Part shown: positions 14,594 through 19,390 of the stretch, one piece after another
Layout of the letters: the number at the start of each line of letters is the position of its first letter
Position numbering within the stretch: position 1 is the stretch's first letter
NCBI GenBank assembly: GCA_041738935.1
Contig: JBGSOV010000002.1
Span: forward strand, 92,469-156,468
Direction of reading: 5' to 3'
Source of the DNA: Candidatus Altimarinota bacterium
GTDB lineage: Bacteria; Patescibacteriota; Gracilibacteria; CAIRYL01; GCA-016699755
Length of the DNA stretch: 64,000 nucleotides
The notes under the pieces: generated by a model
What the model was told of the DNA's origin: nothing
Database searches by the model: none
What the model saw: only the letters and a program-made list of their open reading frames with translations
Made by a program: the position numbers and the translations under genes

Positions 14594-15796
14594 TCAGACT
14601 TTTGTTTGCAAGTAGTTTTCTACAATTTCCAGAAAGCGTTTCTTGATTCCCTCTCCGCTGAGTTCGGTAACTTTTTCACCATTCGTGTAGACAATCGCCA
14701 ATTTGCCTTCGCCTTTGCCGGGAAAAAAAATCCCGATATCTGCCGCGCGTGCTTCGCCGGGACCATTGACTACGCAACCCATCACCGCGATGCGGAGTTT
14801 TTCGGAATCACGATATTTCTGCTTCCAATCCTTTCTTCGTTTCTCGATTTCTGCCTTGATTGTTTCCGCAAAAAGTTGGAATTCGTTCCCTGTCGTTCTA
14901 CCACAACCCGGGCAGCTTGTGATTTTTGGCGCAAAATTTCTTAGCTCTAATGCTTGTAAAATCTCTTGCGCGACCAAGACTTCTTTGGTGCGCCCTTCGT
15001 CGCGCTCGGGTGTAATTGAAACGCGAATCGTGTCGCCGATACCATTTTGCAAAAGAACACTCAGTGCTGCTGCGCTGCTGACGATTCCGCTTGCGCCACC
15101 ACCGGCTTCGGTGAGCCCCAAGTGGATTGCCAAATCGGTTTTGTCCGCCAGCGCTTCGTGAATCCGAATCAGTCCTTGTACATCCGAGGTTTTTGCCGAG
15201 AGAATAATTTTGTTTTTCGGAATACCAAATTGCAGCGCAAATTCGGAGGAGATAATCGCGGATTGCACCATGGTTTTCTGGAACACTTCGCCATCCGAAA
15301 GGGGAAACCCCTGCGCGCGATTCGTCTCCATATTTGTATCCAGCAGTTCTGGATCGAGCGAACCACCGTTGACGCCAATGCGAATCGGTTTGTCGTACTG
15401 TTTTGCAATCGCAAGAATCGCTTCAAAATTATTGTCGTGCCCTTCGCCGCGCCCGACATTACCCGGATTGATGCGATATTTGTCGAGTAACTGGGCAGTC
15501 TGGGGAAATTTTTCCAATAAAATATGTCCGTTAAAATGAAAGTCACCGACAATCGGTACAGCAGTTTTTTTGCGCACAATTTCCATAATTTGCGGAACTG
15601 CCGCCGCCGATTCTGGTCGGTCAACGGTAATTCGCACGAGTTCGCTGCCGGCTTCCGTCAGCTCGATGATCTGCTTGGTTGTTGTCTCGATATCCGCCGT
15701 GTCGGTGCTTGTCATCGATTGCACGACAATTGGATTATCGCCACCGATGGCGATATTGCCGACTTGTACCGCTATGGATTTTCTGCGAGGAGTCAT
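14594..15796 (-). CDS. ispG: 4-hydroxy-3-methylbut-2-en-1-yl diphosphate synthase (IspG/GcpE)
   Basis: VQVGNIAIGGDNPIVVQSMT, LVRITV, RINPGN, and the C-terminal 4Fe-4S ligand region SCPGCGRT...GCVVNGPGE. ATG 15796 (MTPRRKS). Confidence 0.93.
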   Translation of the reverse strand: MTPRRKSIAVQVGNIAIGGDNPIVVQSMTSTDTADIETTTKQIIELTEAGSELVRITVDRPESAAAVPQIMEIVRKKTAVPIVGDFHFNGHILLEKFPQTAQLLDKYRINPGNVGRGEGHDNNFEAILAIAKQYDKPIRIGVNGGSLDPELLDTNMETNRAQGFPLSDGEVFQKTMVQSAIISSEFALQFGIPKNKIILSAKTSDVQGLIRIHEALADKTDLAIHLGLTEAGGGASGIVSSAAALSVLLQNGIGDTIRVSITPERDEGRTKEVLVAQEILQALELRNFAPKITSCPGCGRTTGNEFQLFAETIKAEIEKRRKDWKQKYRDSEKLRIAVMGCVVNGPGEARAADIGIFFPGKGEGKLAIVYTNGEKVTELSGEGIKKRFLEIVENYLQTKV

Positions 15797-16108
15797 ATTT
15801 TGATTGTAGCGGATTTTGATTATCGAGACAGTGCAAAAATACTGTTGACTTCTTTTTATCGAAACAGTTACAAATGACTCTTCCTGTATTTTTACAAAAA
15901 TGAATAGAGAAGGTTCGCCAAATCGAAAGTTTAATTCTGACTTTAACCGCGGCAAAGGTTTGCGTAACCCCGCCCCTGGACACGATGAAATATTGTTTAA
16001 AAAGTTTCAGGATTTTGCAGGGGCTTTCCACCGAAAGCTTACCAAATGGCATAGCAATGTTTTTGGCAAAAGATAAATTTGAGCCATTATTTCTATCAGA
16101 TAAAAACT

Positions 16109-17221
16109 ATGGATTCTACAAATCCTATTGATCAGCTCAAAAGTACTATCGAAGGGTACGATTTATTTTATGCTGGACTTCCGGGTTTTCCACGCAATTT
16201 TACGCGTGACAGTATTTTGTCTGCGCTGCTTTTAGAAGATAAGGCGATGCTTCGCGAACAATTGCGTTTTTGTGGTAAGATGCAGGGCAGTAAAAATGAT
16301 CCGCAAACTGGCGAAGAAGTCGGCAAGATTTTTCACGAATACCCAGGTTTTGTGATGGAAAATGGGTTATCGACGCTCTACAATGCATGCGATACAACGG
16401 CACTGTATCTGATTGGTCATCAAAAATATCGCGAACTGAGCCAAGATGATACATTGCTTCAAAGCGATTATGCTCACATCAAAGAGGCAGCCAGCTATAT
16501 TTTGCGTCATCTTCGTGATGGGATTTTTTATGAAGATCCAGCGCATTGCGGCGCGAAAGAATTTGGACTCAAAGTCTCGTATTGGAAGGATTCTACCTTA
16601 CTCGAACGCAAAGAAGGCAAGCCAATATATCCAGTCGCCTATCCGCTGGCGCATATCCAAAATCTGGCAGGATTGCGGAGCGCCGCCAAATTACTTGCTG
16701 CGGATGATGTTTTGCAAAACGAGATCCAAAAACAAATTGCAGCCATGCAACAGGCACTTGCGGAAAAACTTTTTGACGATGCAACGGGAATGTTCTATTT
16801 GGCGATTGATGAATATGGAACCATTTCGGGAGTTTCAACCGATGGACTCCACGCTCTCTATTACCTCGAGCAGGGCGATATTTCTCCCGAACAAATCCAC
16901 CAAATCGTCCACGCATCTGAAAATCTCGAAACTCCATGGGGGTATCGAGTTTTAGACTCAGAAGCAGCAGCACGAAATCAGACGAATGATGATTATCACG
17001 CCAATACACTCTGGTGTTGGGAGCAGGCAATTATTCATGCTGGCGCTAAATTTTTTGAACTTCAGCACCCGCAAGAAATTACTCTCCGAATAGTGCAGGC
17101 TCTCGGCAATACAAATGCAGAAATTTTGCAATTGCAAGGCGAAAGTTTTGCATATGCCGGTTGTGATCCACAGCTTTGGACAATCGCTGCGAAGGACTAT
17201 TTTGCTCGTCAAGTAGCTTAA
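16109..17221 (+). CDS. glycogen-debranching-enzyme-like (amylo-alpha-1,6-glucosidase / six-hairpin glycosidase family) protein
   Basis: Motifs appear in the order expected for GDE_C-type proteins: AGLPGFPRNFTRDS, VGKIFHE, ACDTTALYL, SYWKDS, YHANTLWCWEQ. Confidence 0.6.
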   Translation: MDSTNPIDQLKSTIEGYDLFYAGLPGFPRNFTRDSILSALLLEDKAMLREQLRFCGKMQGSKNDPQTGEEVGKIFHEYPGFVMENGLSTLYNACDTTALYLIGHQKYRELSQDDTLLQSDYAHIKEAASYILRHLRDGIFYEDPAHCGAKEFGLKVSYWKDSTLLERKEGKPIYPVAYPLAHIQNLAGLRSAAKLLAADDVLQNEIQKQIAAMQQALAEKLFDDATGMFYLAIDEYGTISGVSTDGLHALYYLEQGDISPEQIHQIVHASENLETPWGYRVLDSEAAARNQTNDDYHANTLWCWEQAIIHAGAKFFELQHPQEITLRIVQALGNTNAEILQLQGESFAYAGCDPQLWTIAAKDYFARQVA

Positions 17222-17257
17222 TACATTCTCAGTCCATCGTACTTTTTTGCTCAGCGC

Positions 17258-17285
17258 TTGACAAAATTTTTAGGATATAGAAAAT
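17258..17285 (+). promoter_or_regulatory. candidate sigma70-type promoter for the Met-leader transcript
   Basis: TTGACA (17258-17263), 16-nt spacer, GAAAAT (17280-17285). The leader ATG is 9 nt further on. The -10 element is weak. Confidence 0.35.
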
Positions 17286-17294
17286 AACAGCACG

Positions 17295-17378
17295 ATGACA
17301 ATTGAAAATCCCTCCTTCGGCACAATGACAATGCGCATGATGATGCCGCGGCAGTCGGGAGGTGTTTTGGTACGCTGA
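17295..17378 (+). CDS. 27-codon Met-rich leader peptide MTIENPSFGTMTMRMMMPRQSGGVLVR
   Basis: ATG...TGA ORF with Met codons at 17325, 17331, 17337, 17340 and 17343. It is positioned relative to alternative hairpins exactly as in classical attenuators. Confidence 0.6.
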   Translation: MTIENPSFGTMTMRMMMPRQSGGVLVR

Positions 17379-17414
17379 GAATCTCAAACTGACTCAAAGC
17401 CACACACCTCCCGG
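17355..17414 (+). promoter_or_regulatory. antiterminator pairing (segment 2 : segment 3)
   Basis: TCGGGAGGTGT (17355-17365) is complementary to ACACCTCCCGG (17404-17414): 11 bp including one G-U. It shares its 3' arm with the terminator. Confidence 0.6.
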
Positions 17415-17431
17415 ACAAAGGAGGTGTTTTT
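17404..17431 (+). terminator. attenuator intrinsic terminator (segment 3 : segment 4)
   Basis: ACACCTCC (17404-17411) / GGAGGTGT (17420-17427) with an 8-nt loop, followed by TTTTTGATTTATTTT. Confidence 0.7.
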
Positions 17432-17456
17432 GATTTATTTTCTATTTCTTCTATTC

Positions 17457-18395
17457 ATGATAATTTCAGTTCCTCAAAATCTACGACATATTACCGATGT
17501 CGGTGCGTCTTCTGGAAATGGTATAGATTCGACTTTGCGAATCATAGACCAGTATCAAAGGGCAGGAATTAGTTTTCCTGAAATCATATCTGCCGGACAA
17601 TCTCCGTTTCATGTGGCTTTTGCTGCAATTACTACCGTGTCTCCAAAGGCAAGGGATAGCGCAGATAGGGTACGTCAATTACTAGCTCAAAACGATTATT
17701 CGACTGTCCCAGTAGCGTTGAATAGTGCACCAAGAAATGAAGGACAACAGCTTGCTGATAGCCAAGAATCGCACATTTTTCGATTGCGTTCCGGCAACAA
17801 AGTAGAGCTTATATATGGACCACAAGTCGTGGCGTGGATACAATTGTTTCGAGGAAAGATTGATGCGTTGGAAGTGATTGAATCCGTCGGTATTGATTCG
17901 GTTAATGATTTAATCGAAAATACATCCAATGGTTCACAATTTCGTTCGGCTGAACATCTTCCACTTGTTCATGCTTTGCAAGCGGCAGGAAGGCTTGATG
18001 AACGCGCATCAACAAGAGAAGTCGATCCTTCTGAGATCCAAGAAGCCTTCGCAGACCAATTTAATAGAGTAGTAATTGTTCCTCCCGATGAATACGACAA
18101 CGGAAGAGTCGTGGCAAATCGGGGTACTATCCAACGAATTTTGGACTCTCAAACGGTTTGGATTCCCGGAATTACAGACCATGAGTTGGATGTAAGGGAT
18201 TCATTAACAAAGGTTCATTCGGGGAGGCTAAGTATTTGGCCAAGCTCAAACCACTTCCCTAATGAAGATTTGGGTGTCCTAAATGTTGGTACACGCTGGC
18301 GCCCAGGAACTACAAGCACTACCGATCAGGTTGTAATTGCCCTCTCGAAAAAACTTAAATCCACTGTTGGTGATCAACATAAGGTACAATTCTAA
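17457..18395 (+). CDS. hypothetical protein, first gene of Met-attenuated operon; weak positional resemblance to SAM hydroxide adenosyltransferase (DUF62) family
   Basis: ATG 17457 is the first ATG after the terminator; the GTG at 17424 lies inside the hairpin. Ordered weak matches to DUF62 landmarks: ITDVG, ELIYGPQ, NGSQFRSAEHLPLVHALQAAG, DEYDNGRVVAN, LSIWPSS. The family assignment is tentative. Confidence 0.5.
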   Translation: MIISVPQNLRHITDVGASSGNGIDSTLRIIDQYQRAGISFPEIISAGQSPFHVAFAAITTVSPKARDSADRVRQLLAQNDYSTVPVALNSAPRNEGQQLADSQESHIFRLRSGNKVELIYGPQVVAWIQLFRGKIDALEVIESVGIDSVNDLIENTSNGSQFRSAEHLPLVHALQAAGRLDERASTREVDPSEIQEAFADQFNRVVIVPPDEYDNGRVVANRGTIQRILDSQTVWIPGITDHELDVRDSLTKVHSGRLSIWPSSNHFPNEDLGVLNVGTRWRPGTTSTTDQVVIALSKKLKSTVGDQHKVQF

Positions 18396-18422: not shown

Positions 18423-19331
18423 ATGCCCATCAAAATCCCCAAATCTCTGCCGGCGTTCAAAATTCTCCAAGAAAAAAAAGTCTATGTAATGGACAGTGAT
18501 CGTGCCGAGCGTCAAGATATTCGTCCGCTCAAAATCGGTATTGTCAACCTCATGCCAACCAAAGAGGCGACCGAAGCGCAGTTGATGCGCATGATTGGCA
18601 ATAGTTCGCTTCAAATCGAACCGGTGCTGATCCGTATGGCGAGTTACAATCCTAAAAATACCAGCCAAACCCATTTGGATGCTTTTTATACGACTTTTGA
18701 TGAGGTCAAAAAAACCGGACTCGATGGTCTTATTGTCACTGGCGCGCCGATTGAGATGATGCCTTTTGAGCAAGTCGAATACTGGGACGAGCTTTGCGAG
18801 ATTATGCGATGGAGTAAAGAATATGTCAGCTCAAATCTCTTTCTCTGTTGGGGCGGACAAGCGGCGCTCAAATTTTTCTACGACATCGAAAAATATCCGC
18901 TCGCGCAAAAGTGCAATGGCATTTTTCCACACACACACTCCTCTTGCCCCGAGCTACTGCGCGGTATGGACGACATAATTTTTGCGCCACATTCGCGTCA
19001 TACCGAAATTCGCAAATCCGATATACTTGCTCATCCTGATCTGGAGATTCTAATCGAATCCGAGCAAGCCGGACTGCTGATTGTCGCCAACAAAAGTCGC
19101 TCCCTCATCTTCGATTTTGGACACATGGAATATGATCGCAACACGATTGCCCTCGAATACAAGCGCGACAAGGATAAGGGCATGAATCCAGAAATTCCTT
19201 ACAATTATTTCCCGAATGACGACCCAACACAAACGCCCAAATTGATGTGGCGTGCCAATGCCGAGATGTTTTTTCGCAACTGGGTCAATTTCGTTTACCA
19301 AGAAACACCGTACAAACTCCGCCACGAATAA
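18423..19331 (+). CDS. metA: homoserine O-acyltransferase (MetA/HTS family)
   Basis: MPIKIP..L, RPLKIGIVNLMPTK, GLIVTGAP, catalytic-Cys context NLFLCWGGQAAL, FAPHSRHTE. 27 nt after the preceding ORF. Confidence 0.92.
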   Translation: MPIKIPKSLPAFKILQEKKVYVMDSDRAERQDIRPLKIGIVNLMPTKEATEAQLMRMIGNSSLQIEPVLIRMASYNPKNTSQTHLDAFYTTFDEVKKTGLDGLIVTGAPIEMMPFEQVEYWDELCEIMRWSKEYVSSNLFLCWGGQAALKFFYDIEKYPLAQKCNGIFPHTHSSCPELLRGMDDIIFAPHSRHTEIRKSDILAHPDLEILIESEQAGLLIVANKSRSLIFDFGHMEYDRNTIALEYKRDKDKGMNPEIPYNYFPNDDPTQTPKLMWRANAEMFFRNWVNFVYQETPYKLRHE

Positions 19332-19390
19332 GAAAACAATTGTCTTTTCTTAATTGTTTTGGAAAAATCTGTTTCGGTGTTTTTACAACT

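Follow-up and report, generated by a model that had tools for sequence, protein, structure and literature searches.

A putative methionine-codon leader-peptide attenuator ahead of metA in an uncultured Candidatus Altimarinota bacterium and its relatives

The leader ORF and its place in the operon

The DNA analysed here is a stretch of 64,000 nt (the window) from contig JBGSOV010000002.1 of assembly GCA_041738935.1, which belongs to Candidatus Altimarinota bacterium, an uncultured Peregrinibacteria-like organism. In this window a promoter-like site is followed by a short open reading frame (ORF) rich in Met codons, by a hairpin with a U-rich tail and by two genes, ORF2 and metA (Table 1). The short ORF together with the alternative hairpins formed by its RNA is interpreted as a ribosome-mediated leader-peptide transcription attenuator that would sense charged elongator Met-tRNA; a probability of about 0.85 is assigned to this reading. 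A Met-codon leader peptide with the geometry of the trp, his and leu attenuators had been proposed in the first-pass annotation of this DNA, and the proposal is now supported by a set of fourteen leaders, by compensatory changes in one of the helices and by the lack of any match to a riboswitch or T-box.

Translation of the region bears out the leader ORF and its peptide MTIENPSFGTMTMRMMMPRQSGGVLVR. The other elements listed in the first-pass annotation are also found in the sequence, namely the five Met codons within seven, three of them consecutive, the motif CCTCC at 17311–17315, the small hairpin at 17333–17349 and the octamer ATGACAAT, repeated at 17295 and 17325. The start coordinate given there for the element (17258) proved in the promoter scan to be that of the −35 hexamer. 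The leader ATG is located 9 nt 3' of the −10 hexamer, and the transcript is predicted to start 0–4 nt ahead of this ATG. The leader ORF is thus predicted, from promoter spacing, to be almost leaderless. A Shine-Dalgarno (SD)-like motif precedes the first ATG in just 4 of the 36 long ORFs of the window, and metA is without one; the genome appears to rely on SD-independent initiation. Since the genome is poor in SD sites, the missing SD before the leader ATG is no argument against translation of the leader.

Table 1. Features of the leader region and the operon in the window, and corresponding elements of related loci (window coordinates unless a locus is named).
Feature	Position or locus	Strand	Description
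Promoter-like site	17258–17285	+	−35 TTGACA 17258–17263, 16-nt spacer, −10 GAAAAT 17280–17285; 10/12 matches in the promoter scan
Leader ORF (type A)	17295–17378	+	27 codons, MTIENPSFGTMTMRMMMPRQSGGVLVR; stop TGA at 17376–17378
Segment 1 (AU.CCUCCU)	17308–17316	+	pairs with segment 2 as anti-antiterminator in the fold of the leader ORF alone
Regulatory Met codons	17325–17345	+	ATG at 17325, 17331, 17337, 17340, 17343; five of seven codons, the final three consecutive (17337–17345)
Segment 2	17355–17365	+	TCGGGAGGTGT (RNA UCGGGAGGUGU); within the leader ORF
Segment 3	17404–17414	+	ACACCTCCCGG (RNA ACACCUCCCGG); partner of segment 2 (antiterminator) or segment 4 (terminator)
Segment 4	17420–17427	+	GGAGGTGT (RNA GGAGGUGU); with 17404–17411 forms the intrinsic terminator; U-rich tail 17428–17441
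ORF2, putative first controlled gene	17457–18395	+	312 aa from ATG 17457; without Pfam match
metA, homoserine O-acyltransferase	18423–19331	+	Pfam HTS, E 3.9e-124; NCBIfam MetA models below curated cut-offs
Type A leader	L024		MITPRFSAGTMVMQMMMPRAAGRFLQS
Type A leader	L046		MKSVRLPFGAMMMRMMMSPQYGGVLVS
Type A leader	L049		MNIKHLPFGIPMMEMMMPRQSGGVMRIM
Type B leader	L010		MTNSVLNQSRFEMMMSPTDFVVSSSNA
Type B leader	L001		MIDSVLSASYFGMMMSSTNFVVSSSGV
Type B leader	L033		MTNSVLNPSGFSMMMSPTDFVVSSSDD
Type B leader	L037		MTNSVLNQSCFSMMMSPTDFMVSSS
Type B leader	L002		MINSILNKMMMSTHGSRGELF
Type B leader	L003		MNINTLQFGLMMMSPTELRGVLF
Type B leader	L030		MNNSSPTQFGLTMMMSAATSWKALRT
Type C leader (tandem, Gracilibacteria), first listed	L018		MNLASNTNTMMMSAVSAEISV
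Type C leader (tandem, Gracilibacteria), second listed	L018		MKQRISYILMMMVTSRWRMRLFV
Type D leader	L043		MNPNTSNFGAQSSNMMGMMMSSLRRPHLR
Zn-ribbon + HTH_7 gene	L030:4687–4980
Zn-ribbon + HTH_7 gene	L033:4679–5008
Zn-ribbon + HTH_7 gene	L037:4669–5004
Zn-ribbon + HTH_7 gene	L036:598–888

Alternative pairings of the leader RNA

The three pairings 1:2, 2:3 and 3:4 between the four segments of the leader are mutually exclusive. Segment 2 begins 12 nt downstream of the position at which the third consecutive Met codon starts, and its end is 11 nt short of the stop. Its pairing with segment 3 (TCGGGAGGTGT/ACACCTCCCGG) comprises 11 bp with one G-U, as claimed in the first-pass annotation. The terminator is formed by ACACCTCC (17404–17411) and GGAGGTGT (17420–17427) followed by TTTTGATTTATTTT; the hairpin energy is −12.6 kcal/mol in the window, and the terminator scan detected this structure. 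The 1:2 structure, previously suggested as a possibility, is supported both by the fold of the leader ORF alone and by compensatory changes in its helix.

The 161-nt region folds better than all 200 of its shuffles (z = −2.96). Within the window ORF, the complement of the terminator 5' arm was equalled in 0 of 500 shuffles (z = −3.65). When the ribosome-covered nucleotides were masked, the constrained folds behaved as the attenuator model requires: a ribosome placed on the Met run lets the RNA preceding segment 4 form the 2:3 hairpin (−26 kcal/mol), and with a ribosome placed on the stop codon the terminator alone remains.

Related leaders and their common geometry

Loci around the ORF2 homologues and the closest metA homologues were fetched and scanned for short ORFs with ATGATGATG. 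This resulted in 13 further distinct short ORFs of 21–29 codons from related Peregrinibacteria, Peribacteria and Gracilibacteria contigs, so that 14 leaders are available including that of the window; they are assigned to types A–D (Table 1). The type-A leaders of L024, L046 and L049 are homologous ORFs of 27–28 codons, each with the stop TAA; among the four leaders of this type the TTGACA hexamer is invariant and the −10 hexamer is conserved. A −35 hexamer TTGAC[AT] is found upstream of the leaders.

The motif ATGATGATG is present in 14/14 leaders. Its sites number 22 in 274 kb of non-redundant related DNA, compared with ~3.4 expected from composition. A hairpin with a T-run follows within 95 nt of all 14 leader-type ORFs and of none of the five other short ORFs with ATGATGATG. 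The Met run is separated from the stop by 9–12 codons and the stop from the T-run by 44–67 nt (eleven leaders tabulated), while the lead-in to the Met run varies in length from 8 to 14 codons. The terminator 5' arm has a complement in the 3' part of the ORF in every one of the 12 leaders tested, that is, those known at the time of the test (L046 and L049 were found later). This complement starts 10–17 nt past the first base of the third Met codon, ends 1–17 nt before the stop and is significant against 500 dinucleotide shuffles (p<0.02) in 10 of the 12. The Met run, the stop distance, the terminator and the 2:3 complement are thus kept across the fourteen leaders, in line with the conservation in relatives that the first-pass annotation had expected of an attenuator.

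Some further features of these leaders can be mentioned. Promoter spacing predicts leaderless or nearly leaderless transcripts for types A, C and D. In a Gracilibacteria bin, a distant ORF2 homologue (29% identity) is preceded by two complete Met-leader attenuators in tandem (L018:3724–4006), both of which have an MMM ORF and a terminator of their own. A Phe-Gly pair occurs 0–8 codons ahead of the Met run in the leaders of the window, L046, L049, L043, L003, L030 and L001, and it varies synonymously (TTC/TTT, GGC/GGT/GGA). This recurrence points to a common ancestry of types A, B and D or, alternatively, to an effect of the nascent peptide on stalling.

What is conserved in the leaders

The Met-codon run is the sole element common to all four types, and the helices are unrelated in sequence between them (GGGAGG/CCUCCC, CGUGG/CCACG, GCGAAGGC/GCCUUCGC and GGAGAUCUC/GAGAUCC). 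Within type B, the L002 and L003 leaders read the conserved RNA CGUGGUG.GCUCUUC one base (+1) out of frame relative to L010, L001 and L033; despite the shift the frame stays open and the stop is hardly displaced. Ahead of the Met run, the type-B alignment contains indels of 3, 6 and 12 nt, all multiples of three. Since the helix sequences and the frame behind the Met run vary, it is the Met run, the presence of an open frame and the pairing of the RNA that are under constraint, and not the peptide or an aptamer.

The pairings of type A were examined in an alignment of its four sequences (A4), with controls in which the pairing partner was slid. In helix 1:2, which encloses the Met codons in this type, 90.6% of the cells are paired (47–78% in the slid controls) and 4 of the 8 pairs are changed on both sides (compensatory changes). 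The antiterminator has 74% of its cells paired (slid controls 35–53%) and the terminator 87.5% (slid controls 38–72%). For type B, RNAalifold predicts a 1:2 hairpin GAUGAGC-CCACG / CGUGG-U-GAGCUC with the last Met codons within its 5' arm; its pairs are all invariant or changed on one side only. The type-B terminator has 3 compensated pairs. Because segments 2 and 3 of type B are separated by a variable loop that MAFFT aligned poorly (alignment A2), the antiterminator of this type is described from single-sequence folds.

The controlled genes

The first-pass annotation named an unknown ORF and metA as the genes under control. The identity of metA stands, and the other gene, ORF2, is no longer featureless, for its predicted structure has the fold of enzymes that cleave S-adenosylmethionine (SAM). 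The gene caller starts ORF2 at TTG 17430 (321 aa), where the database protein P0001 also begins; the N-termini of the homologues point to ATG 17457 as the start. These homologues come solely from metagenome bins of Peregrinibacteria, Peribacteria and Gracilibacteria. ORF2 has no Pfam or NCBIfam match, and 28 members of its family are without a Pfam hit even at E<=10; a profile search of the PDB sequences gave nothing relevant, with no sequence-level link to DUF62/SAM_HAT. The AlphaFold model of ORF2 (predicted local distance difference test, pLDDT, 85) was compared with the PDB using Foldseek: all 24 hits at E<=0.001 are SalL, fluorinase or SAM hydroxide adenosyltransferase (SAM hydrolase), with a best E of 5.9e-10 and template-modelling (TM) scores of 0.5–0.65. 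The model shows the two-domain fold of this (DUF62) family. Known members of the family cleave their substrate SAM at the C5' position, with L-methionine as a product. The modelled fold suggests a SAM-cleaving, methionine-releasing activity for ORF2, and it would make sense for an enzyme of this kind to be induced by methionine shortage.

The invariant motifs of the ORF2 family (alignment A1) include HITDVG, NSAPRN, SQFRS and PPDEYxNGR. In the same alignment the homologues P0056, P0058 and P0059 have W where all others have a conserved G, which is the signature of Gracilibacteria genes with UGA=Gly that the source database translated with a UGA=Trp table. In L041:3001–4303 an ORF2 gene without a Met leader has msrB, the gene for methionine sulfoxide reductase B (SelR), directly behind it, which again connects the ORF2 family with methionine.

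The gene that most frequently follows these leaders is ORF2 rather than metA. The metA gene is downstream of the leader in the window, L046 and L049. The latter two loci are the closest relatives by metA (80% and 79% identity, respectively) and have the same type-A leader with different first genes. In L046 this first gene encodes an unknown 365-aa protein (L046:1826–2923; also in L047 and L048), which gives no Pfam hit at E<=1 and has no similarity to ORF2; it is a candidate methionine-pathway or salvage gene. In L049 it encodes a homocysteine S-methyltransferase (PF02574, E 1.3e-14). In both loci metA follows. Adjacency of metA to ORF2 was seen in 0 of the first 23 loci, and the link to metA came only from the search started with metA.

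In type B the leader is followed by a small gene with a Zn-ribbon and HTH_7 (96–111 aa) and then by ORF2. In L001 and L002 a remnant of 23–35 codons, corresponding to the C-terminal helix-turn-helix of this small gene, lies between the terminator and ORF2, and in L003 and L010 the gene between leader and ORF2 bears that same C-terminal helix-turn-helix.

Proposed mechanism

From the sequence elements, their conservation and geometry and the methionine-related cargo, the following course may be predicted for transcript start, leader translation, stalling, termination and the response to methionine. Transcription would start at or just ahead of the AUG of the 27-codon leader ORF. When methionine is plentiful, the ribosome would pass the five Met codons and arrive at the UGA at 17376, where it would cover the 3' part of segment 2 and the upper antiterminator; upon its release segment 1 would re-pair with segment 2. 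Segment 3 would then be free to pair with segment 4, and the resulting hairpin with its U-run would make RNA polymerase terminate at 17428–17435, ahead of ORF2. When Met-tRNA is scarce, the ribosome would stall with a Met codon (17325–17345) in its A site, keeping segment 1 off segment 2 and leaving segment 2 exposed from 17355 onwards. Segments 2 and 3 would form the long antiterminator (~−26 kcal/mol) before segment 4 is made, and the polymerase would read into ORF2 and metA.

Several points weigh against this mechanism. At equilibrium the full-length leader of the window favours the 2:3 pairing plus a 1:4 pairing, and therefore termination in the methionine-replete state would depend on kinetics and on ribosome position. 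A ribosome stalled at the last Met codons leaves segment 1 (17308–17316) behind it, uncovered. Methionine starvation should also lower the level of formylmethionyl-tRNA (fMet-tRNA), cut initiation on the leader and in this way favour termination. The covariation comes from 4 sequences in type A and 7 in type B and is supportive, not decisive; for helix 1:2 of type A the shuffle controls are only modestly exceeded, 23 of 500 being as high. The loci were retrieved solely via ORF2 and metA homologues, and about two thirds of the ORF2 loci are without such a leader. A metagenome scan with the ORF2 profile gave 5 loci, 0 of them with a leader, and the search for weaker Met-rich short ORFs upstream of the ORF2 loci without a leader produced nothing convincing.

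Alternative explanations

SAM riboswitches and Met T-boxes are the usual RNA controls of met genes. They share with the present element the position upstream of met genes and the terminator/antiterminator output, but no covariance model matches here, and the conserved element is the Met-codon run of an ORF instead of an aptamer or specifier loop. The Rfam scan of region 16900–17800 gave no family match at E<=10, SAM riboswitches (SAM-I to SAM-VI, SAM/SAH) and T-box RF00230 included; no riboswitch or other cis-regulatory RNA was matched in the whole window at gathering score or in seven related leader loci at E<=1, which speaks against a known riboswitch, the alternative that the first-pass annotation had wished to see excluded. 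The Rfam hits obtained are at chance level (snoRNA and 7SK fragments, and a sub-threshold suhB on the L043 terminator). This suhB/mmgR hit (L043:2911–2990; 29.1 bits compared with a gathering score of 41, E 0.044) covers the attenuator hairpin and is probably a chance match to a hairpin with a U-run. A small undescribed riboswitch binding SAM or methionine would nevertheless fit part of the data. Its P1 helix would be the 1:2 pairing around a pocket of ~40 nt with AUGAUGAUG, and the ligand would stabilise P1 so that the terminator forms; with its compact interior, its compensatory changes and its competition with the antiterminator, the 1:2 helix indeed has the layout of an OFF-riboswitch, and the cargo is related to methionine and SAM. 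Besides the lack of an Rfam match in the window region and the seven other loci, the supposed pocket is not conserved across the four types, AUGAUGAUG excepted, and in type B the 1:2 hairpin has no pocket, being a simple stem-loop whose loop measures ~6 nt. Moreover, an ATG upstream and a stop 9–12 codons downstream always share the frame of AUGAUGAUG, the type-B indels ahead of it being multiples of three, and the extra Met codons of type A (M.M.MMM, MMM.MMM, MM.MMM) shift their position like codons and not like fixed nucleotides. Such a riboswitch is considered very improbable. The same low probability is given to recognition of the AUG repeats by a trans-acting protein or tRNA, TRAP-like or T-box-like, with the short ORF being incidental. 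TRAP-type proteins bind repeated triplets and the CAU anticodon of tRNA-Met can pair with AUG, so by analogy with known systems the repeats could suit either partner. The T-box model, however, has no match at E<=10 and neither a specifier loop nor a T-box sequence is seen in a leader of only ~140 nt; just three triplets are contiguous, without spacers; and the open frame and stop position, needless in an untranslated RNA, are kept across 14 leaders and a frame change.

The hairpin at 17404–17427 could also act mainly on translation, sequestering GGAGG (17420–17424) as the ribosome-binding site of ORF2 with the start TTG 17430. This GGAGG lies 5 nt ahead of the in-frame TTG, at which the 321-aa protein P0001 begins; against this, the homologues align from ATG 17457, the same GGAGG in L046 and L049 is 25–33 nt from the next start codon, SD-like motifs are rare in the genome, and the U-run directly behind the hairpin in 14/14 leaders is needless for sequestration alone. 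An SD role of GGAGG in segments 2 and 4 is unlikely because the genome hardly uses such sites. Purely translational control is therefore given little credence, and control through GGAGG could add to transcription attenuation rather than replace it. Hardly any weight is given to the view that the short ORF encodes a functional Met-rich micropeptide and that the hairpin is merely its terminator. The Phe-Gly pair that recurs with synonymous variation before the Met run in many leaders would agree with it, but behind the Met run the peptide lacks conservation and the frame differs among leaders, the length ahead of the run varies from 8 to 14 codons, a plain terminator needs no conserved complement of its 5' arm in the ORF, and the short spacer contains no separate promoter for the genes that directly follow. 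Each of these explanations fails to account for the conserved open frame, the stop position or the U-run.

Relation to known leader-peptide systems

As far as can be judged by computation, the element is of a known kind and not of a new kind, and its architecture has every computationally testable defining feature of leader-peptide attenuators. The short ORF in the 5' leader contains a cluster of cognate codons (five Met in seven codons in the window, ATGATGATG in 14/14 leaders), and a terminator is situated between this ORF and the first gene. A mutually exclusive antiterminator uses the tail of the ORF, which can also take part in the 1:2 pairing. The geometry fits the ribosome footprint, segment 2 being free at a Met stall and covered at the stop, with which the constrained folds agree. 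The genes supply the sensed amino acid, as seen from metA and homocysteine S-methyltransferase and as predicted for ORF2.

With the enterobacterial trpL, hisL, leuL, thrL, pheL and ilvL the element shares a short leader ORF that carries a run of cognate codons, four segments forming 1:2, 2:3 or 3:4 and an intrinsic terminator ahead of the first structural gene. Also shared are the location of the regulatory codons within or beside segment 1, that of the stop beside or within segment 2, and cargo in the pathway of the sensed amino acid. The element differs from the enterobacterial systems in sensing methionine, in having no SD, in the predicted transcript start at or near the AUG and in its host, a member of the candidate phyla radiation (CPR). 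In type A, unlike the enterobacterial attenuators, segment 1 is upstream of the Met codons, so that helix 1:2 encloses them; in type B the last Met codons are in the 5' arm of the 1:2 hairpin, which is the position of the Trp codons in trpL.

The first-pass annotation, which knew of no described Met-codon attenuator, put the novelty too strongly, since Met leaders have been proposed in Campylobacter jejuni (PMC3847290) and Streptomyces lividans (PMC8079986). MetL of C. jejuni, proposed in 2013 by Porcelli et al. (PMC3847290), has 20 aa with 3 Met codons and is encoded on a short terminated RNA upstream of metBA; its start codon was confirmed by translation initiation site (TIS) profiling, and a second Met-rich upstream ORF, CJsORF19 (MMYQMR), precedes a methionine transporter (bioRxiv 10.1101/2022.11.09.515450). 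Common to MetL and the present leader is a short multi-Met ORF on a short terminated RNA ahead of a metA-containing operon, with ribosome stalling and antitermination proposed for MetL. MetL comes from an unrelated lineage and is described with a ribosome-binding site, and the two reports (PMC3847290; bioRxiv 10.1101/2022.11.09.515450) contain no analysis of alternative structures; the likeness would be a functional analogy only. In S. lividans a leaderless short ORF, metL, upstream of metNIQ is annotated as a methionine-dependent leader peptide; it has two internal Met codons among Cys and Thr codons and no typical intrinsic terminator (PMC8079986), in contrast to the 3–7 internal Met codons and the canonical terminator found here. 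Regulatory short ORFs at the transcript 5' end, with a run of cognate codons and control over downstream operon genes, are also represented by the leaderless polycysteine ORFs of mycobacteria (bioRxiv 10.1101/834739) and the leaderless leader peptides of Deinococcus deserti (PMC4007540). These respond to other amino acids (Cys and others), and leaderless initiation of the present ORF is predicted from promoter spacing. Earlier attenuator surveys contain no Met case (PMC2965389; PMC1262725), and no paper combining the CPR with leader-peptide attenuation was found in the literature search.

For no other amino acid is leader-peptide attenuation so poorly documented as for methionine, with only the Campylobacter and Streptomyces predictions in the literature found; among the Met cases found, these 14 leaders, whose terminators and alternative pairings are clear, provide the best comparative material. 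They raise the mechanistic question of how a sensor that starts with fMet-tRNA can signal that Met-tRNA is short. No earlier indication of ribosome-mediated attenuation in CPR bacteria was found. Attenuation there would imply coupled transcription and translation and, in addition, efficient SD-independent or leaderless initiation. The leader may further serve as a functional label, marking the CPR family with the SAM-cleaving fold and the unknown 365-aa protein as methionine-starvation genes and giving candidate functions to "hypothetical" proteins of uncultured organisms. The value of the finding is in the clear comparative support for a Met-codon attenuator, in its presence in the CPR and in the functional label on a SAM-enzyme-like family.

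A wider scenario, speculative and on balance doubtful, is that Peregrinibacteria and some Gracilibacteria possess a methionine-starvation regulon in which all control is by Met-codon attenuators that are (near-)leaderless and SD-independent. As core cargo, this regulon would have a branch of the SalL/DUF62 fold, confined to the CPR and so far unrecognised, whose members hydrolyse SAM, perhaps taken from a host, to regenerate L-methionine, and the Phe-Gly pair would tune stalling via the nascent chain. If true, organisms with minimal biosynthesis would have, in SAM hydrolysis by the ORF2 family, a new way of salvaging methionine.

Genetic code and neighbourhood of the operon

The leader ORF and ORF2 are in the same reading frame, split by the single TGA at 17376, and genetic code 25 would fuse both. 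TGA as a sense codon was rejected: it terminates 7 of the 36 long ORFs of the window, the homologous leaders carry TAA at the same position, and the ORF2 homologues are without an N-terminal extension. The evidence favours use of the standard genetic code in the window.

An A+T-rich inverted repeat (AAAACAATT ... AATTGTTTT) is located right after the metA stop at 19333–19360; it was not reported by the consensus terminator scan and may mark the end of the leader-ORF2-metA operon. Upstream of the operon, on the opposite strand, ispG (GcpE) is found both in the window (14594–15955, −) and in L049 (1156–2358, −). Synteny around the met operon is thus partly preserved between the two, though the operons begin with different genes.

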